Shown piece after piece: positions 1 to 19,050 of a stretch of 20,000 nucleotides of DNA. The DNA lies in assembly GCF_004010195.1 (NCBI RefSeq), contig NC_057757.1:8191384-8211383 (forward strand), written 5' to 3'. Both the position numbers and the translations under genes were made by a program. The stretch is from Chiloscyllium plagiosum. Taxonomy: Eukaryota. How positions within the stretch are numbered: the stretch's first letter is position 1; every line of letters starts with the position of its first letter. Under the pieces are notes generated by a model. That model saw only the letters and a list, made by a program, of their open reading frames with translations. It ran no database searches and had not been told where the DNA came from.

Positions 1-1824
1 GGAGAAGGAAACCAGGAGGGTCAAAAGACAGCAGGAGATAGGCTGGGCTGAGATGATTAGGATGAATTGAAAGAGGTACTTCAAGTGTATTAAATGGGAA
101 AGACTAACTCGAGAGAGAATAGGGCCCCTCAAGGACCAAAGTGGTCATGTCTGTGTAGAACTGCAGGAGATGGGTGAGGTCCTCAATGAACATTTCTCCT
201 CTGTGTTGACCATGGAGAAAGACATGAAGACTTGGGAATTTGAAGAAGTTAGTGGTGATACCTTGCGGACAGTCCAGATCTCAGTAGAGGAGGAGTTAGA
301 TGTATTAGAAAGTGTAAAAATGGATAAATCTCCTGGTCCTGACCATAAATCTATATATATGTTAAAAAAAACACTAAGAGGTGATAGAAGAAATTGCAGG
401 GGCCCTGGCTGATATTTTTGCATCATCGTTAACCACGGGCGAGGTCCTTGAAAACTGGAGGGTAGCGAATATTGTGCCATTATTCAAGAAGGGCTACAGA
501 AATAAACGTGTAAACTATCGGCCAGTAAACCTAACATCTGGGGTGGGTAAGTTACTTGAGAAGATTCTGAGGGATAAGAAATACATGCGTTTGGAAAATC
601 AGAGTTTGATTTGGAGTAGTCAGCATGGCTTTGTGAATGGGAGACCGTGCCTCACAGATTTGTTGGTGTTCTTTGATGAAGTGACCAGGAAAGTTGACAA
701 GGGCAGGGCAGAAGACATAGTCCATATGGATTTCAGGAAAGCCTTTGGAATCGAGAGGGAGCTGGATAGACAATTAGCTTGATGGCAGGAAGCAGAGGAT
801 GCTTGTCAGACTGGAGTGCCTCAGGGATTGGTGCTGCACCCATTGCTGTTTGTTATTGATATCAATGTTTTGGATGAGAACGTACAAGGGCATAATTAGC
901 AAGCTTGCAGATGACATTAAGATAGTCTATCATGGACTGTGAGGAAGGTTTTCAGAAATTGCAGCAGGACCTTGATCATCTGGGGAGTGGGCTGAGAAAT
1001 GGCAAATAGAGTTTAATATAGATAACTGTGAGATCTTGCACTTTGGAAAGTCAAATCAAGAGAGGAGTTTCATGGTGAATGGCAGGGCCTTAAGGAGTGT
1101 AGTAGCACAGAGGTACTTTGGAGTTCAGGTACACTGTTCTGAGAAAGTGGACTCACAGGTAGACAGGGCAGTGAAGAAAACTTTGGACACACTGGCCTTC
1201 ATCAGTCAGGAAACTGGGTATAGAAGTTGGGGAGTTACGTTGCAGTTATAAAGGACGTTGGTGAGGCTGCAATTGGAGTATTGTGTTCAGTTTTGATCAC
1301 CTTGCTGTAAGAAGGATGTTATTCAGCTGGAAAGACTGTAGAAGAATTTTACAAGGATGTTGTCTGGACACAACGGTCTGAGTTATAGGGAGAGGTTGGA
1401 CAAGCTCAAACTTTATTCTTTAACGCGTAGCAGACTGAGGAGTTGGGGGGTGAGTTGTAGACATGTATAAGATCATGACAGGCATGGATTGGGTCAATAC
1501 CCACCGTCTTGTTTTGGGAGGGTTGGGAATTGTGGACAAGAGGACATCACTTTAAGGTTAATGGGGAAAGAATAAAAGGGAAACAGAGGGTTAACGTTTT
1601 TACACAGAGGGTGGTACGCATATGGAATTAGCTGTCAGCGGCAGTGTTTGAAGCGGGTACATTAACAACATTTAAAAGCAATTTGGACAAATACATGGAG
1701 AGGGAAGGATTAGAAGGATGTGAGCCAAGTGCAGGGCAATGGGGTTAGCGGGGATGGACACTTTATTGGCACGGACCAGTTTGGGCCAAAGGCCCTGTCT
1801 CTGTGCTGTTGGACTCCATGATTC
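1..1824 (+). mobile_element. CR1 LINE, decayed 3' part of ORF2 (reverse transcriptase) plus 3' UTR; starts before the window
   Basis: ORF fragments give typical CR1 ORF2 motifs: DKSPGPD, WRVANIVPLFKKG, NYRPVNLTS, SQHGFVNGRPCLTDL, KLADDIK at ~901-921 and MHFGKSNQER. The 3' end ctgtgctgttggactccatgattc resembles the CR1 tail. Many stops and frameshifts. Confidence 0.95.
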
Positions 1825-3949: not shown

Positions 3950-4704
3950 NNNNNNNNNNNNNNNNNNNNNNNNNNNNNNNNNNNNNNNNNNNNNNNNNNN
4001 NNNNNNNNNNNNNNNNNNNNNNNNNNNNNNNNNNNNNNNNNNNNNNNNNNNNNNNNNNNNNNNNNNNNNNNNNNNNNNNNNNNNNNNNNNNNNNNNNNNN
4101 NNNNNNNNNNNNNNNNNNNNNNNNNNNNNNNNNNNNNNNNNNNNNNNNNNNNNNNNNNNNNNNNNNNNNNNNNNNNNNNNNNNNNNNNNNNNNNNNNNNN
4201 NNNNNNNNNNNNNNNNNNNNNNNNNNNNNNNNNNNNNNNNNNNNNNNNNNNNNNNNNNNNNNNNNNNNNNNNNNNNNNNNNNNNNNNNNNNNNNNNNNNN
4301 NNNNNNNNNNNNNNNNNNNNNNNNNNNNNNNNNNNNNNNNNNNNNNNNNNNNNNNNNNNNNNNNNNNNNNNNNNNNNNNNNNNNNNNNNNNNNNNNNNNN
4401 NNNNNNNNNNNNNNNNNNNNNNNNNNNNNNNNNNNNNNNNNNNNNNNNNNNNNNNNNNNNNNNNNNNNNNNNNNNNNNNNNNNNNNNNNNNNNNNNNNNN
4501 NNNNNNNNNNNNNNNNNNNNNNNNNNNNNNNNNNNNNNNNNNNNNNNNNNNNNNNNNNNNNNNNNNNNNNNNNNNNNNNNNNNNNNNNNNNNNNNNNNNN
4601 NNNNNNNNNNNNNNNNNNNNNNNNNNNNNNNNNNNNNNNNNNNNNNNNNNNNNNNNNNNNNNNNNNNNNNNNNNNNNNNNNNNNNNNNNNNNNNNNNNNN
4701 NNNN
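3950..4704. other. Assembly gap (755 N)
   Basis: Run of N. Confidence 1.
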
Positions 4705-4852
4705 NTGAGGCCTGTGTTTAACTTCCTGCTCAATCTTGTATTTTCTGATGACAGTCGGAGTCCAGTGGTAGATTCGAGCATAACTTTATTTTTGTACAAC
4801 TTCACACTGTTTAGCAGGCACAGCAATAAGGGACAGATTATCTTAAGTTGGC

Positions 4853-5183: not shown

Positions 5184-6511
5184 GAGTCATCGAGTCATAG
5201 AGATATACAGCATGGAAAAAAAGCATTCGGTCCAACTCGTCCATGCTGACCAAATATCCTAACCTAATCTAGTCCCATTTGCCAGCATTTGGCCCATATC
5301 GCTCTAAACCCTTCCTTTTCATGTAACCATCCAGATGCCTTTTAAATGCTGTATTTGTGCCAGCCTCCACCACTTCCTCTGACAGCTCATTTCACACACG
5401 CACCACTCTCTGTGTGAAAAAGTTGCCCCTTAGGTCTCTTTTATATTTTACCCCTCTCACCCTAAACTCATGCCCTCTAGTTCTGGATTCCCCTGCACCA
5501 GGGAAAAGACCTTGTATATTTACCTTATCAATGCCCCTCATGACTTTATAAACATCTATAAGGTCACCTCTCAGCCTCCGACACTTCAGCGAAAACAGTC
5601 CCAGTTTATTCGGCCTCTCCCTATAGCTCAAGCCCTCGAACCCTGGTAACAAGCTTGTAAATCTTTTCTGAACCCTTTCACGGACACCCCCACCGATAGG
5701 AAGGAGAACAGAATTGCACTCAAATTAACTGATATAATCTCCTGTGCAGCCGCAACATGACCTCTTAATTCCTAGATTCAATACTCTGACCAATAAAGGA
5801 AAGCATACCAAACACCTTCTTCTATATCCTATCTACCTGCTAAGGAACTATGAACTTGCACTCCAAGGTCTCTTTGTTCAGCAACACTCCATAGGACCTT
5901 ACCATAAAGTGTATAAGTCCTGCTCTGATTTGCTTTTCCAAAATGCAGCACCTCTAAATAATACTCCATCTATCACTTTTCAGCCCATTGGCCCACCTGA
6001 ACAAAATCCCGTTGAAATCTGAGGTAACCTTCTTCATTACCCAGTCTACCTCCAATTTTGGTGTCATCTGCAAACTTGCTAACTAATACCCCCTAATACA
6101 TCCAAATCATTTATATAAATGACGAAAAGCAGTGGACCCAGCACTGATTCTTGCGGCACACCACTGGTCATAGGTCTCCAGTCTGAAAAGCAACCCTCCA
6201 CCACCACCCTCTGTCTTCTACCTTCGAGCCAGTTCTGTATCCAAGCCTAATGCTCCCTGTATTCGATGAGACCTAACCTTGTTAACCAGTCTGCCATGGG
6301 GAACCTTGTCGAATGCCTTACTGATGTACATATAGATCACATCTACTGCTCTGCCCTCGTAAATCCTCTTAGTTACTTCTTCAAAAAACTCAATTAAGTT
6401 TGTGAGACATGATTTCCCACGCACAAAGCCATGTTGACAATCCCTAATCAGTCCTTGCCTTTCCAAATACATGTACATCCTGTCCCTCAAGATTCCCTCC
6501 AACAACTTGCC
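5184..6511 (-). mobile_element. CR1 LINE 3' portion (RT C-terminus, 3' UTR and tail)
   Basis: Minus-strand translations give QHGFVRGKSCLTNLIEFFEEVT, SKAFDKVPHGRL, SKFADDTKI (~6056-6083) and RRLRGDLIDVYK...SRTRGH...FFTQRVV. The tail gagtcatcgagtcatagag is at 5184. Confidence 0.95.
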
Positions 6512-6512
6512 C

Positions 6513-6600
6513 CTAGGCCCAACATTCCTCAGCTCCTTCATCAATGATCTTTCCTCTCTCATAAGGTCAGAAGTGGGAATGTTCGTCGATAATTGTATAG
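6513..6600 (+). mobile_element. Short RT fragment of a different LINE family, opposite orientation, abutting the CR1
   Basis: Translates LGPTFLSSFINDLSSLIRSEVGMFVDNC, matching the non-LTR RT LGPxLF..INDL...FADD region with FADD decayed to FVDN. Confidence 0.8.
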
Positions 6601-6767
6601 TGTTCCCCTCTCCTTTTCCGAGGTGTCTGAATGTCAGCATTTTGATACCTTCCACTCCAGCTCACTATCACTGTTTTAAAGTTAATTTCTCGAGGGATCA
6701 TGTGTTAGTGTCTTATCATTTAAACTATGTTTTTATGCTCTTCCAAGCCCCACTCATCTGTTTGTCA
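6601..6767 (+). repeat. Inverted duplication block B (pairs with 17598-17765)
   Basis: cactccagctcactatcactgttttaa...gtgtcttatc.tttaaa...gctcttccaagcc...atctgtttgtca is the reverse complement of 17598-17765. The ORF track shows it too: PAHYHCF..V...VSY.LNYV..LFQA.LICLS on opposite strands. Confidence 0.93.
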
Positions 6768-9720: not shown

Positions 9721-9724
9721 GAGC

Positions 9725-9928
9725 TGGAACTGTATGTTCTGGCTGCTCCTGCTTTGTGCCTGTGTGTATTCCAAGTCTGGGTGCAATGGGGGTGGGTGGA
9801 CAGACAGGGTTAGACCTGGGCTAAACCACTGGAACTGTATGTTCTGGCTGCTCCTGCTTTGTGTCTGTGTGTATTCCAAGTCTGGGTGCAATGGGTGGAC
9901 AGACAGGGTTAGACCTGGGCTAAACCAC
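9725..9928. repeat. Near-perfect tandem duplication (105 bp + 99 bp)
   Basis: 9725-9829 and 9830-9928 differ by one substitution and a 6-bp indel. Confidence 0.97.
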
Positions 9929-10030
9929 TGACCTGTTCCTTTTTCCCACACATCCCTCTAATTTCACAAAGATGAGTGTTGGTATGTTCTATACCTGGGG
10001 GAGGTGAGCTGGGACAACGCCACCTCCCAA

Positions 10031-12872: not shown

Positions 12873-13098
12873 AAATAGGGTGTGATCTCGGGATGGGGCT
12901 CATGGTGTTTGAGTGGACAGCGTTATTGCTAGTAGATTCCAGATTCTGTCTTTGTTAGTTTATTATCATGTAACCCCCCTCTGTAATCAGGATTACACTT
13001 GTTATTGTAATGGGTTTGTTCATTTCCAGAAATGTGAAAAACAGCAGCAAAGCCGAGCAATGCTGTCACCTCGATCTCCCCAAGGAGCTTCCACACAG

Positions 13099-13104
13099 TA
13101 TAAG
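13099..13104 (+). promoter_or_regulatory. TATA-like box of the GPCR gene
   Basis: TATAAG lies ~90 bp upstream of the ATG and ~25-30 bp upstream of Inr-like tcag motifs at 13125-13133. Confidence 0.55.
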
Positions 13105-13191
13105 GCAGCGTCTCTGGGAATGCATCAGCTCAGAGTTTCAAACAAGGAGCTTGTCAGCTGCCTGAAGGGACAGATCCCCTCACACAGAAAA

Positions 13192-13258
13192 ATGCTTCAA
13201 CCAATTGATCACGTGAAGAAGGTGTTCTACTCAATCCTTGCTTTTATTGGCATTCCAG
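13192..13258 (+). CDS. gpr139-like: GPR139-like class A GPCR, coding exon 1 (N-terminus and first half of TM1)
   Basis: AAAATG start, MLQPIDHVKKVFYSILAFIGIP plus 1 nt, then donor CAG|gtatgg. The phase 1 intron joins exon 2 in frame (G|TT = Val). The position matches, as I recall it, the TM1 intron of vertebrate GPR139 (YYSLLLCLGLP|ANIL). Confidence 0.9.
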
Positions 13259-13534
13259 GTATGGCATTGTGACAATTGAAGTTGTTTTAATCTGCTGCTG
13301 ATCTGCTCTTTGGTTTTACCATTTGAACAATAACATCTCCAGCTCATTGACTGGTCAGCCTTATCCAGACCCCGGGACAGTGACAGCAGTTCACTGAGCA
13401 GCATTTTCGGTACAATTCTCCACTGACATAGACTCCCAACTTCACTGCTGCTGCAGCATTTTCTGGTCTCAGCGTTCTGTGATCTGTTCCAGTTTCATGT
13501 GGTTTGAAGGCGTGAGGAGAGATCAGGCAGGTTA

Positions 13535-13626
13535 GTTCTGAAGAAGGGTCACTGCACCCGAGACATTAACTCTGTGGTCTCTCCCCCAGATGCTGCCAGA
13601 CGTAATGAGCAATTTCTAGTTTTGTT
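13535..13626 (+). mobile_element. Intronic Penelope-type terminal repeat with a decayed hammerhead core
   Basis: ctgaagaagggtcactgcacccgagacattaactctg...cagatgctgccagac...agcaatttct.gttttgtt. Confidence 0.7.
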
Positions 13627-13764
13627 ATGCAAGTGAGGCATATTATCAGCAGAGGTTTGAAGGTTAAGACGTGATCTGTGCGATTTTCTACAAGATATTG
13701 CTCAGAAACAACAGGACAGATAAAGATAAACAGTTTCCATTCACACCTAGTTCCACGAGAATTT

Positions 13765-14045
13765 TAAAGCTTTAAGAGGCGATTTCAGCAAAATCATGCA
13801 AGATATTGAAAGGAAAAGGCAGGCTAGGATTAACAATTGCCTTTGGTTGGGCATTCTAGCACGAGGGAGCATAGTCTGACAATGAGGTCCTGTGTGCTTA
13901 TGAGAGATGTTCGGAAGCACTTCTACACACAATGGGTGGGAGAGCTTTGGAAATATCTTCCACAAATGGCAATGGGTACTGGAGCAGTTGGTCAGTTTGA
14001 ATGAGGTAAGTCTTTTTTATGAAGAAAAGGAATTGAGTGGTATGG
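13765..14045 (+). mobile_element. Old intronic CR1 3' fragment
   Basis: Decayed LRGD...SSTR(G)HSL...RDVRKHFYTQWVGELWK.LP, equivalent to the CR1 ORF2 C-terminal RGH...FFTQRVV..WN.LP. Confidence 0.75.
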
Positions 14046-14819
14046 ACCTGTTTTGAATTTTAAAAGCTTCATGTAACTATCATCCCTTCTGGAAATTCTT
14101 TGCTCATCACCATCTCTGGTCAGGATGTTCAAATCAAGACAGATTGCCCACCTGATCCCTGCAGGTTGAGATATTTGTCATGTACATATTAACAATGTAA
14201 CTATCACAGCAGTCCTAACATCCACATGTTATCACTAAGGGAGCAATGCATACTCTTTTATGCTACGCTTGTGTAGGACAGAAGGAGTAGTCTTGTTTGA
14301 AATCTACTGCAGGTTCTAATGATCTGTTTCCTAGTCATGTTGTGGCTCCTATCAGGTTTTGGTCTAATGCTAAGAGCAGGGGATGCTCTCCTTCCTGGAA
14401 AAGGGGAGAATTTGGTTTATCAACAGTGCAAGCGCCAGTCCTATATCTGGGTTGGGAGTGAGGTTTACTCATGGGGATCTGCACCTGCCAAAGTTGGAGC
14501 TGAGAACATTAAGAATCGATGACAGACGTTCAAATAGTCACCTTGCAACCAACCAAAACTACACAATCTCTTCTGCTCTCTTAAGAGGGACTGTGGGGTA
14601 AGTCTCTTCCAAAATCCATAAACTCTGGAGTGATTAGGCTGGAGGACAGTCTGAGGTGGTTGTGAGAGTCTTAAAATTTAAACTCACTTGATGCAAAACA
14701 ATTCAACTTACACGGTGTGCCAGTTCTGATGGTAAAAATGTATTGTTGCTCTCTGGAATAGATAATGGGAATTTCCAATCAATAATTCACTGTTTTTTTT
14801 TCTCATATGTCTCCCACAG

Positions 14820-15721
14820 TTAATTTGCTGGCGATTACAATCCTTGCCTGGGGAAAGTGTGGTGTTTCGTCTTGCACGACTCGCTACCTGGTGGTTATGG
14901 CAGCTGCTGATCTAATGGTTATTATCACTGAGATTATACTGTGGAGATTTCCCTTGTATTATTACAGGTGGTCTTTCTTGGATATCACTCCTGTGTGCAG
15001 TGTTATTGGGGTCCTGTTACGTACTGCCATAGATTGCTCTGTCTGGTTCACCGTCACTTTTTCCTTTGACCGACTTGTGACCATTTGTTGTCAGAAGTTG
15101 AGAATAAAATATTGTACTGAGAAAACTGCGTCTGTGGTTCTGGCAACAACCTGCACGCTGTTCTGGCTGAAAAACATCCCCTTCTATTTTTCAAATGAAC
15201 CTCTGAGGATAATCAAAAATGTGCCATATGACTGTATTACAAAATCAAGCTACTTTACTGAGACTTGGTGGGTGGTATTAGATTGGCTTGATACAGTTTT
15301 GACCCCTTTACTGCCATTCGCTTTAATTCTGTTTATCAATGCTATGACAGTCAGACACATTTTAGTGACCAGTCGAGTCCGGAAGAGGCTGAAAGGTGAG
15401 AGCAAAGGAGAGAAGCATAGAGACCCAGAGATGGAGAGCAGAAGGAAGTCTGTGATTTTGCTCTTCACCATCTCTGGGAGCCTCATCCTCCTGTGGTTAA
15501 TCATTGTTGTAGATTTCTTATATTATGCCATTCAAGGAATCAATCCTGACGATTACTCACCTTTTCTATATCACTTCAGTGCGGTTGGTTTCATGCTGCA
15601 GAACCTAAGCTGTTGCACAAACACATTTATTTATGCAGCAACATTGCCCCGGTTCAGAGCGAAGATCAGTAATGCAGTAAAATACCTGATTGCACAAATT
15701 CCTTGCGTTTTGAATAAATAA
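14820..15721 (+). CDS. gpr139-like: GPR139-like class A GPCR, coding exon 2 (TM1 end to stop); spliced protein 322 aa
   Basis: Polypyrimidine tract and cccacag| acceptor, then an uninterrupted 7TM ORF: N1.50 (VNLL), YLVVMAAADL (TM2), CSVWFTVTFSFDRLVTICC (TM3, DRY-like), NIPFYF (TM4), TPLLPFALIL (TM5), RRKSVILL...LLW (TM6), CCTNTFIY (TM7) and helix 8 FR. Confidence 0.95.
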
Positions 15722-15722
15722 A
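15713..15722 (+). promoter_or_regulatory. Two overlapping AATAAA hexamers over the last codons and stop (possible polyA signal)
   Basis: AATAAATAAA, with a T/GT-rich tract at ~15769-15784. Confidence 0.35.
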
Positions 15723-15771
15723 ACTCCTCCGTGAAGTACAGGAGGGTCCTATTGTTTCCAGACCATGAATG

Positions 15772-15892
15772 TTTTCTTTTTATTCACTCGTGGGATGTGC
15801 GAATCACTGGCTGGGTCCTGTGTTTATTACCCCATCCCTAATTGCCCCTTGAGAACGTGTGCTCAGCTGCCTTTTTGAACCACTGCAGTCCA
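15772..15892. mobile_element. Fragment of a common shark interspersed (LINE-associated) repeat
   Basis: ttttattcactcgtgggatgtg...tttattaccccatccctaattgccccttgagaa...agctgcc.t.ttgaacc.ctgcagtcca, recognised from recall only. Confidence 0.6.
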
Positions 15893-17597
15893 AGTTCCAA
15901 TTCAAAACCCCGAACCTTACTCCCTTATCTTTTGCCCACAACAACGTTTTACCCCTCAAACTCTTTCCCATGCCCTGTGTAATTGCCCCCATGCAGTGTC
16001 CTTTCTGCCTCGACCCTCCATTACCCCTGACATAAAAGCCCCTCTTTATCGCCCTCCAAGTCCTATATAAACCCCTTGCTGAGGACCAATCCCTCAGCCC
16101 TAAGTAAATGAGTCTGTGTGGACTGACCGGCCTGTGTTTTCCTGCCATAATGCACAGCAGGATCCCAGTCCCACAATCGCTGAACCTACATGGCCCAAGA
16201 GGGGGATATTTGGTCCTTCATGATCTACCGCATCGTGAAATGGTCCAGGACCTGTCTGGGTCCTCAAGATTCGCGCCCGAATGGCCCTAATTGAATCCCC
16301 TTCCTGTGGAGACAATTCCTCCTTGATAGCACACCCTACTGCACTCAGTGAGCATGTGCAGAGCTCACTGGCCTTTTGACTGACTGTGGTGATGCACAAG
16401 ATTCAACACCCTTCACTGAAAAAGGGGCTTTGTCTAACAGCCCTCCTCCAGTTTTCCCACCCCAGGTTTTGCCCACACCCCTTGCACCAGAAGTTGCTCT
16501 GTCCCCAATCTTACAACCCCCCAGGCCCCTGTCCAATTGTCCCTTCTCAGTGTAGCTGTATTCCCATCCACAAATGCCCCAAAATATACTCCCCATCTGA
16601 CTAGATTTGTTCCTCCCCAGGTTTTATGTCCCCCATTTTACTGTGCTACTACTTTGCGTTTGCAATATAGCCACCCCACCCAAATTGTTCCCGCATTCTG
16701 CTTGCAGTGGAATCGACGGATGCTTTCTTTTCTCCAGATACTGAAGGCCTTCACTAATGACTTTGAATTTCTGAACCTGTCTGCAGCCTTTGAAACATCA
16801 CAACTCAGTGATGGATGAGGCATCCTCAACCCATCAAACCATTCATTAACAACACAGCTCAGCATCGGAGAAATTCTGTTAAAAGATTAAATATATTTGG
16901 CATCCGGAATTTCAATGCATAAAAAACTGTCCGTAACTTTGAGGGAGTAAATGGAATTTTGAATTCGGACAAATTTACACAGAGATATATCGAGTGTCTA
17001 GAATGAGTTATCAAGGACCTTTAACAGAAAAATGTGGGTCACCTGAGAGAAAGAATAAACAAAGTATGTTTTGCCCGAATCAAACAGAAATGTCTGACTT
17101 CTGTTTTAAAGTATTAATCAATGATGTTCCACGGACTACAAATATCTCCAGAGCTCTGGAATGAGAAAGGTGGCAATAGTTAAATTGCAAAATTGGATGG
17201 GATGAAGGAATTAGGGATGGTGAGTTCTGACAGAAGAAAAAACAGTTAGAATAATGGGTTTAAATGGCACTTGAAGTGACCGTGCATTTTCGTGAAAGGG
17301 AAGTTTAGTTGAGTCTATTAAACCGATAGCTTTCTCTTGGTGATGTTTGTGTACTTGTCTTTCTTTTCAAGAAAATTGAATTTGATAATCATGCCACTAC
17401 CGCAGCATCGGAAAGATAAGTACAATCTCATCAATCTTTTGATAAGATTATACATGAAGCAAGAAGGTTTGACATGGTCTTGGGATGCTGATGTAAGTGT
17501 GCTAAAGTGATTGCTACCTCAGAAGTACCAAACATGAGGGAATGCATGAGAAAAAGAAAATGCAATGGAGAATGGGTCTCAGACATGTACACCAACT

Positions 17598-17765
17598 TGA
17601 CAAACAGATTAGTTTGGCTTGGAAGAGCTCCAAAACATAATTTAAACGATAAGACACTGATAAATGATCAATCGAGTAACTAACATTAAAACAGTGATAG
17701 TGAGCTGGAGTGAAAGTGCCCAAAATGCTGACATACACACACCACAGAAAAAGAGAGGGGAAGCA
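17598..17765 (-). repeat. Inverted duplication block B'
   Basis: Reverse complement of 6601-6767. Confidence 0.93.
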
Positions 17766-17955
17766 TTATCTAAAGGGAAAGCCCGATGAACGCTCTGTTA
17801 GAACGATATTGTTTGAGGCCATGGACATTGCAGCTCTGAGGGGCTCCTTGTATATGGGGGTAGTTACCACTTAATGTTACAATCACACATAACATTAACA
17901 AAGAAAGAAAAATATTGAAGGAATATCCTCAAGATTGATGCAGCTAAGGGGACTG

Positions 17956-18277
17956 NNNNNNNNNNNNNNNNNNNNNNNNNNNNNNNNNNNNNNNNNNNNN
18001 NNNNNNNNNNNNNNNNNNNNNNNNNNNNNNNNNNNNNNNNNNNNNNNNNNNNNNNNNNNNNNNNNNNNNNNNNNNNNNNNNNNNNNNNNNNNNNNNNNNN
18101 NNNNNNNNNNNNNNNNNNNNNNNNNNNNNNNNNNNNNNNNNNNNNNNNNNNNNNNNNNNNNNNNNNNNNNNNNNNNNNNNNNNNNNNNNNNNNNNNNNNN
18201 NNNNNNNNNNNNNNNNNNNNNNNNNNNNNNNNNNNNNNNNNNNNNNNNNNNNNNNNNNNNNNNNNNNNNNNNNNNNN
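17956..18277. other. Assembly gap (322 N)
   Basis: Run of N. Confidence 1.
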
Positions 18278-19050
18278 AGCCAATCATAAAGCTTTTGTGT
18301 TCAGATTAGTTTCCTTGGTTGGGAGTCCTGATCAGCAAAGACTCTGACCAAGGGATATACTTCCCAGGTGCTGTCTGCCAGGAAGTATGCAGGTTGCTCA
18401 ACATTAAGTGGACCCTCCACTGCCCTCATCACCCCTAGGCATCAGGGCAATTGGAATGAACCAATCGACGGTAAAACAAAGGTTTGCTAAGGAACCAACA
18501 AGAGGGATTGTCCTGGCAACAAGCCCTCTCAATAGAACTATGTAACATCCAAGCAACACCCAATCGGACAACAGGCTCAAACCCTTTGAAAGTCATCACC
18601 GGAAGGCCTATGTCAACGCCAGGAAAATTGATTTACGGAAAACTGATTCCCAACTAATTGGTGCCGCACTATTGAAGTATTGTCAAGACTGAACCAATTC
18701 TGACAAGCAAACCCTTTGAAAGTCATCACCGGAAGGCCTATGTCAACGCCAGGAACAATTGATTTACGGAAAACTGATTCCCAACTAATTGGTGCCGCAC
18801 TATTGAAGTATTGTCAAGACTGAACCAATTCTGACAAGACTGCATCCCAAAAGGTATCGGCTGCTCAGAGTGACCCCCGAAGGAGGACATGATATCATCT
18901 CAGGAACGTGGATCCATGTGAAGAAAATCCATAAAGAACTGCTAGGAGCCAAATGGGAAGCAAATTCCGAAGTGCTGCTGCTCCCTAGAACAGCAGTGAT
19001 CCAAAGTTTAATGGAAGAAAACCTAGATCTACATATCACATGAAGCAGCC
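18278..19050 (+). mobile_element. Decayed endogenous retrovirus (class I, gamma/epsilon-like) integrase core and C-terminus
   Basis: Manual translation across stops and frameshifts: GVLISKDSDQGIYFPGAVCQEVCRLLNIKWTLHCPHHP*ASGQLE*TNR / EGLSWQQALSIELCNIQATPNRTTGSNPLKVITGRPM / GHDIISGTWIHVKK...LGAKWEG/VLLLPRTAV. This matches SDQG.HF, HPQSSG.VER.N, TGLSPFE...GRP and PGDWV.VK...PRWEGP..VLL...TAV. Confidence 0.88.
18578..18838. repeat. Near-perfect tandem duplication (130 bp + 131 bp) within the integrase
   Basis: 18578-18707 and 18708-18838 differ only by a 1-nt indel (aggaaaatt vs aggaacaatt). Confidence 0.97.

Follow-up and report, generated by a model that had tools for sequence, protein, structure and literature searches.

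A shark receptor family of more than a thousand copies, separate from GPR139 and GPR142 and tentatively read as a chemosensory repertoire

The window analyzed here is a stretch of 20,000 nucleotides from Chiloscyllium plagiosum (G000:C48:8191384-8211383 of the 3.56-Gb genome); positions given without a contig refer to this stretch. On the forward strand, 13192..15721 is an intact two-exon gene that encodes 322 aa with no internal stops, and its product is a G-protein coupled receptor of class A (GPCR; Pfam 7tm_1, E=5e-19). The gene belongs to a family of class A GPCRs whose copies in this genome, counted by shared sequence motifs, number well above a thousand. The family is separate from GPR139, after which its members are mislabelled in databases, and from GPR142, and we tentatively regard it as a chemosensory repertoire tuned copy by copy, a reading to which we give slightly less than an even chance.

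The window gene and its surroundings

A sequence-only reading of this DNA had proposed an intact 322-aa, two-exon 7TM gene, and the exon-intron structure together with the Pfam match bears this out. The features are:

13060..13191, + strand: open in-frame upstream extension with ATGs at 13060 and 13120; it spans the TATA-like element and contains no sequon
13099..13104, + strand: TATA-like element about 90 nt 5' of the ATG, with the same spacing in four close paralogues; putative promoter element
13192..13258, + strand: coding exon 1 (67 nt; 22 codons plus 1 nt), an N-terminus of about 10 residues and the first half of TM1
13259..14819, + strand: phase-1 GT-AG intron (1,561 nt; GT donor at 13259), positioned as in GPR139
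14820..15721, + strand: coding exon 2 (902 nt), from the remainder of TM1 to the C-terminus and TAA; it contains the sites of the pocket and loops that are under positive selection
14188..17955, + strand: duplicated block with a 95% identical copy 12 kb downstream (G000:C48:8217146-8220886), in which the gene copy is frameshifted

We infer the start codon to be the ATG at 13192, because the TATA-like element is common to the paralogues and the RefSeq models of close relatives have 322 aa; the extension upstream is probably promoter or 5' UTR rather than coding sequence. Of 29 close paralogues searched in 1.5-kb flanks, 12 have a counterpart of exon 1, and the acceptor context of the intron is kept in all 30 subfamily loci. 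The intron lies directly before N1.50, and its position and phase are identical in the true GPR139 of this genome, as had been proposed from the sequence; this common intron marks old kinship rather than orthology. The absence of extracellular glycosylation sequons was also called correctly: the sole N-X-S/T of the protein, at residue 284, is within TM7.

The window protein has the class A hallmarks N1.50, D2.50, D-R3.50, the cysteine pair between C3.25 and ECL2, P5.50, W6.48 and Y7.53 (numbering counted from anchor positions). Among 44 aligned family members, C3.25, C45.50 and W6.48 are present in all and Y7.53 in 43, while P6.50 of the CWxP motif and P7.50 of the NPxxY motif are present in none (0/44 each); because these two prolines are absent, the signalling competence of the family is only assumed. 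The fold predicted for exon 2 has seven helices, at moderate confidence (pLDDT 64, pTM 0.52), and a hairpin ECL2. The model fits class A structures, and in a Foldseek comparison GPR139 ranks second and fourth, indistinguishable from other class A receptors. Searching the PDB with the window protein as a single sequence returned AT2R as the sole match; with a profile, the best match is GPR139 (E=1e-14; PDB 7vug and 9m42 for GPR139/GPR142), and peptide receptors come next.

The segmentally duplicated setting noted earlier is confirmed by the 95% block downstream and by a paralogue in inverted orientation whose tail is shortened, plus a spare exon 1, upstream of the window. Broken reading frames at 71-1251 (+) and 5392-6661 (-) are, from their appearance, presumably fragments of LINE reverse transcriptase. 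The window also contains assembly gaps (N runs) at about 3950-4710 and 17950-18280, and tandem repeats of 105 nt (9724-9930) and 131 nt (18578-18838).

Relationship to GPR139 and GPR142

Both GPR139 and GPR142 are present elsewhere in the genome as single genes. A motif derived from GPR139 structures has one genome match (G000:C21:58.73 Mb), encoding a protein with 85% identity to human GPR139; the single GPR142 gene (G000:C24:44.31 Mb) is 91% identical to that of the white shark. The window protein is 22-25% identical to GPR139, within a range of 17-25% for GPR139 and GPR142 together. The earlier judgement that it is too divergent to be the conserved ortholog therefore stands.

The main tree was built from 40 rows under LG+G4 and contains long branches. 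In it, family members from sharks, rays and skates form one clade (support 97/93), to which a conserved salamander gene, the nearest outside relative, is sister (100/99). The family, the salamander gene and proteins from coelacanth, teleosts and frogs together form a vertebrate clade (100/98), which amphioxus proteins adjoin, and GPR139 and GPR142 group apart from the family (100/99). A quick tree of 87 rows, the only one to which a site-mixture model was applied, agrees with the 40-row tree. AU tests reject the grouping of the family with GPR139 (p=9e-6, or 9e-21 when the salamander gene is included), with GPR142 (p=1e-5) and with both (p=6e-4). Orthology of the window gene to either receptor is thus rejected by identity, by the single orthologues elsewhere and by the AU tests (p<0.001). 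The same tests overturn the idea of an expansion made of GPR139 duplicates and indicate a separate, old lineage instead; that origin is rejected despite the location of several young family members (C21:59.2-60.3 Mb) about 0.5 Mb from the true GPR139, a nearness that, given the tree, is probably coincidence. A Callorhinchus protein is nested inside the family, so the lineage predates the split between chimaeras and sharks. Members were found in sharks, rays, skates and one chimaera, and subfamilies are common to shark orders and rays.

The Trp/Phe site of GPR139 comprises E3x32, F3x33, H5x43, W6x48, R6x51 and N7x38 (PMC7318219, accessible part). One of these six residues, W6.48, is kept in the window protein; the replacements are E3.32 to L, F3.33 to R, H5x43 to D, R6.51 to I and N7x38 to F. 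With five of the six pocket residues differing, the suggestion that the ligands are amino acids such as Trp or Phe is a weak lead.

RefSeq and UniRef call family members ‘probable G-protein coupled receptor 139’, ‘neuropeptides capa receptor-like’ or ‘vasopressin V2 receptor-like’. The window protein has 1,946 database matches and a second search gave 2,292, the best 120 of each being all from sharks; for the window protein, these 120 are 57-80% identical and 118 carry the GPR139 name, the nearest named proteins being from whale, zebra and bamboo sharks. One family member, XP_072405952.1, clusters with a ‘RING-type domain-containing protein’ and is possibly a fused gene model.

Family size, selection and expression

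Codon patterns for TM3 and TM7 have 1,649 and 1,536 genome matches (controls: 0 and 1, respectively), and a motif in exon 1 has 1,033 (control: 0). The motif DPEMESRRKS, with 188 exact matches, marks only part of the family. The earlier statement that ties many ‘probable GPR139’ genes of sharks to this motif was too broad in that respect. The TM7 motif was also found in 11 of 20 sampled TM3 loci, and the TM3 motif in 14 of 20 sampled TM7 loci; by extrapolation, about 2,100-2,300 loci would carry one or both. The family total should be larger than this, because just 11 of the 20 loci drawn with the third motif (DPEME) had either of these two. Copies are spread over many contigs and are dense on C8 and C37-C49.

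Intact copies can be counted more directly. When the genome was searched with the window protein (best 131 of 8,254 candidates scored), 97 of the 135 matches listed were full-length and stop-free, and the weakest full-length match was still 56% identical. With a query from a second subfamily (best 131 of 8,521 candidates scored), 109 of the 131 matches listed were full-length and stop-free, and all were at least 80% identical. These counts were made by hand; the two lists do not overlap and together give a direct count of at least 206 distinct intact main exons. Among the matches to the TM3, TM7 and DPEME patterns, 60 entries representing 58 distinct loci were sampled systematically, not randomly, from the first 100 matches listed per pattern (C1-C8 for TM3 and TM7, C4-C47 for DPEME). 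Exon 2 was intact, with its acceptor, in 6/20, 8/20 and 12/20 sampled loci, or 25 of the 58 distinct loci, with exon 1 confirmed for only a minority; the other 33 are broken or interrupted by gaps, several of the ‘broken’ ones by assembly gaps. Extrapolated to the genome, roughly 600-1,400 family genes would be intact. Allelic or haplotig inflation is ruled out as the main source of the counts, as far as two subfamilies show, since pairs with a nucleotide identity of 97% or more are rare (0 of 406 and 3 of 435). The sequence-only reading had described an expanded multigene family with birth-and-death turnover; the family proved larger than guessed, and such turnover is confirmed.

The numbers of intact genes may be overestimates, because seven of eight intact second-subfamily copies of exon 2 have no exon 1 within 30-40 kb upstream. 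This mismatch between the exons could reflect long introns, scrambled assembly or surplus alternative first exons. In the first 14.3 Mb of G000:C8, there are 77 matches to the exon-1 motif versus 21 to the TM3 motif. First exons of the second subfamily (L149, L176-L183) encode a longer, visibly variable N-terminus of about 50-70 aa, and several of these copies, unlike the window gene, have N-X-S/T sequons. The second-subfamily copies also have upstream DNA in common over several kb.

Selection on codons was assessed with the site models M1a and M2a, implemented in home-made code, for the 30 loci closest to the window gene and for 29 loci of the second subfamily. Both sets consist of best-scoring copies and are hence biased toward intact genes; gene conversion between paralogues, which can inflate site-model tests, was controlled only crudely. 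Most sites are under purifying selection, and sites in the pocket and outer loops are under positive selection. In the window subfamily, M2a improves on M1a by 2dlnL=83, with omega 3.0 on 6.9% of sites and 62% of sites at 0.14; in the second subfamily 2dlnL is 519, with omega 8.9 on 5.8% of sites and 73% at 0.16. The top sites of the window subfamily are 2.61, one in ECL1, 3.32, 3.36, two in ECL2 including 45.51, 5.37, 6.51, 7.36 and one in the tail (residues 64, 73, 89, 93, 151, 162, 175, 251, 277 and 315 of the full window protein), and those of the second subfamily are in ECL1, ECL2 and the tops of TM6-ECL3-TM7.

Relative to a generic class A set of pocket and extracellular-loop positions, selected sites number 8/79 inside versus 2/220 outside in the window subfamily (Fisher p=5e-4) and 14/80 versus 1/220 in the second (p=4e-8). 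The signal holds in both halves, each with its own tree. By region, omega in the window subfamily is 0.87 in the pocket, 0.64 in the outer loops, 0.41 on the inner face and 0.36 at other helix positions; the corresponding values for the second subfamily are 1.21, 1.77, 0.17 and 0.45. Four-fold sites have diverged to nearly the same degree within the variable regions as elsewhere (0.195 vs 0.194; 0.098 vs 0.080), which rules out mutation hot-spots as the cause of the loop variability. Positive selection on pocket and ECL residues, proposed earlier as a check, is therefore present in both subfamilies.

A look-up of RNA data sets gave none for exon 2 of the window gene. Expression was sought in a single-cell run that has no tissue label. 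None of 97 reads aligned to the window gene reached 95% identity in the 2% of the run that was read. At a second-subfamily locus, 245 reads aligned, 52 of them at 95% identity or higher. The sense-strand reads pile up over the 3' UTR, and some reads are antisense. The family thus has at least one transcribed member, from the second subfamily. In run X5, oligo-dT-primed reads lie antisense across the 5' part of one exon 2 from the second subfamily (L172:7868-8323), and an X7 contig has the acceptor of that exon joined to non-canonical sequence from upstream (L172, 8071).

Interpretation and comparison with known systems

The chemosensory reading was chosen because the family behaves in the genome like odorant, vomeronasal and bitter receptors, and because the known olfactory repertoires are so small. 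The layout resembles that of known chemoreceptor families: a compact gene, a short N-terminus, clusters and numerous pseudogenes. In cartilaginous fishes, large as their olfactory organs are, only 20-62 olfactory receptor genes are known (PMC10869828, PMC10116579; accessible parts of both), as in the catshark, with 34 V2R genes and 4-9 in each other family (PMC10116579, accessible part). In the mechanism we propose, the conserved inner face would couple all members to a common G protein, and substitutions at 2.61, 3.32, 3.36, 45.51, 6.51, 7.36 and in the extracellular loops would retune ligand specificity after each duplication. The expressing cells might be sensory, in the olfactory epithelium or taste buds or as solitary chemosensory cells, and the ligands, which need not be amino acids, might be small molecules or peptides carried by the water. 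Against a role in smell, a comparable expansion in a snail has been interpreted as neuropeptide signalling (PMC11589774, accessible part).

The main rival, possible but unlikely in our estimate, is immune or barrier sensing: the family would be a sentinel repertoire of leukocyte, mast-like or epithelial receptors for microbial or parasite peptides and metabolites, for which mammalian MRGPRs and formyl-peptide receptors are models. An omega near 9, together with a burst of copying that is very young and widely scattered, is more typical of a host-pathogen arms race than of odorant receptors. The very strong loop-focused selection in the second subfamily (omega 8.9) and the rapid lineage-specific turnover both suit such a role, and second-subfamily transcripts come from a library whose tissue is not labelled. 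Cartilaginous fishes are described as having no MAS1-related receptors (PMC8455134, accessible part), which may leave this niche open. On the other hand, the accessible supplements of a shark immune single-cell atlas (PMC11372145) contain no GPR139-type name, with the caveat that gene naming may differ there.

A considerably more doubtful explanation is that the receptors respond to signals from the animal itself or its own species (peptides, pheromones, gamete or self-recognition cues) and have been diversified by sexual or social selection. Peptide receptors do occur in the wider clade, both as the profile matches that follow GPR139 in the PDB and as FMRFamide-receptor-like clusters, and the C3.25-ECL2 cysteine pair (44/44) and the modelled hairpin ECL2 are as in peptide receptors; receptors in the hundreds, with a heavy turnover of pseudogenes, are nevertheless difficult to square with endogenous ligands. 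Finally, most copies could be passengers of segmental duplication in repeat-rich chromosomes, with few working genes and no repertoire function. The 33 of 58 sampled loci that are broken or gap-interrupted, the several kb of common upstream DNA and the missing exon 1 near seven of eight second-subfamily copies speak for this. We nevertheless consider it very improbable: 62-73% of codons are held at omega 0.14-0.16 and the surplus of change is limited to the outer face (in sets biased toward intact copies), and the subfamilies are common to shark orders and rays.

If the preferred chemosensory reading is true, the idea that the sense of smell in sharks depends on a few dozen V2R-type receptors would fall; its 2,000 and more loci, with working genes likely in the hundreds, and strong pocket-directed selection make the family a candidate answer to the paradox of a small repertoire and a large olfactory organ in sharks. 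If the family is immune, the oldest lineage of jawed vertebrates to have adaptive immunity would possess an equally unrecognized recognition system encoded in the germline. A full-text literature search, with most subscription journals outside its reach, found no paper on the family, and it is not mentioned in the accessible main text of PMC10620051, PMC11979771, PMC8455134, PMC7677710 or bioRxiv 2024.09.09.611499. For GPR139-type names, the accessible supplements of PMC8455134, PMC13188829 and PMC11806052 held nothing useful and those of PMC13200729 only 1:1 orthologues; a paucity of GPCRs has been stated for cartilaginous fishes (PMC8455134, accessible part). The family is large and diversifying, comes from a GPCR lineage that is new, and is apparently undescribed as a receptor repertoire. 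The ‘probable GPR139’ models of RefSeq and UniRef in sharks, rays, skates and Callorhinchus are this same family under automatic names given to single models, and thousands of such database entries are mislabelled.

Among its relatives, the window protein resembles GPR139 in its phase-1 TM1 intron, in W6.48 and in the absence of the NPxxY proline, whereas GPR139 is single-copy, lacks the C3.25 and ECL2 cysteines and has P6.50, the family being the opposite in each. GPR142, too, is single-copy and conserved in the genome where the family is multi-copy. The salamander ‘probable GPR139’ (XP_069092602.1 and orthologues) has ICL2 and ICL3-TM6 motifs in common with the shark family; its sequences from three genera share a single cluster at 90% identity, so that it is conserved with no sign of expansion, in contrast to the hugely expanded shark family. 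This receptor, labelled GPR139, seems to be an ancient gene of gnathostomes that has no name of its own. Coelacanth, teleost and frog relatives (XP_005988539.1, KAM4562537.1) belong to the same vertebrate clade. Additional GPR139/142-like subtypes have been named in fish and coelacanth, in a survey that included no shark (PMC6504862, accessible part), and the salamander, coelacanth, teleost and frog relatives are possibly the GPR210A/B of that study (Rinne et al. 2019).

Farther afield, the family and the FMRFamide-receptor-like genes of the mollusc Lymnaea (about 450 genes; PMC11589774, accessible part) are in the same corner of class A by language-model features, and both are arranged as tandem clusters among repeats, but the expansions are independent. 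Nematode Srw receptors are in the same broad corner by the same features. The closest parallels in behaviour are the vertebrate chemoreceptors OR, TAAR, V1R/ORA, V2R/OlfC, T1R and T2R, which the family resembles in its clusters, pseudogenes, variable pocket and constant cytoplasmic face; by sequence it belongs to none of them, with only 7tm_1 and a sub-threshold Srx match in Pfam (E<=0.1) and with GPR139-like receptors as its nearest kin. Set against the 20-62 olfactory receptor genes of cartilaginous fishes (PMC10869828, PMC10116579; accessible parts), the intact main exons of the family number at least 206. It may be a seventh family of vertebrate chemoreceptors, arisen independently from a lineage related to GPR139 and 10-30 times as large as the whole known olfactory repertoire of these fishes, a proposal that we hold as plausible while judging it rather more apt to be wrong than right.
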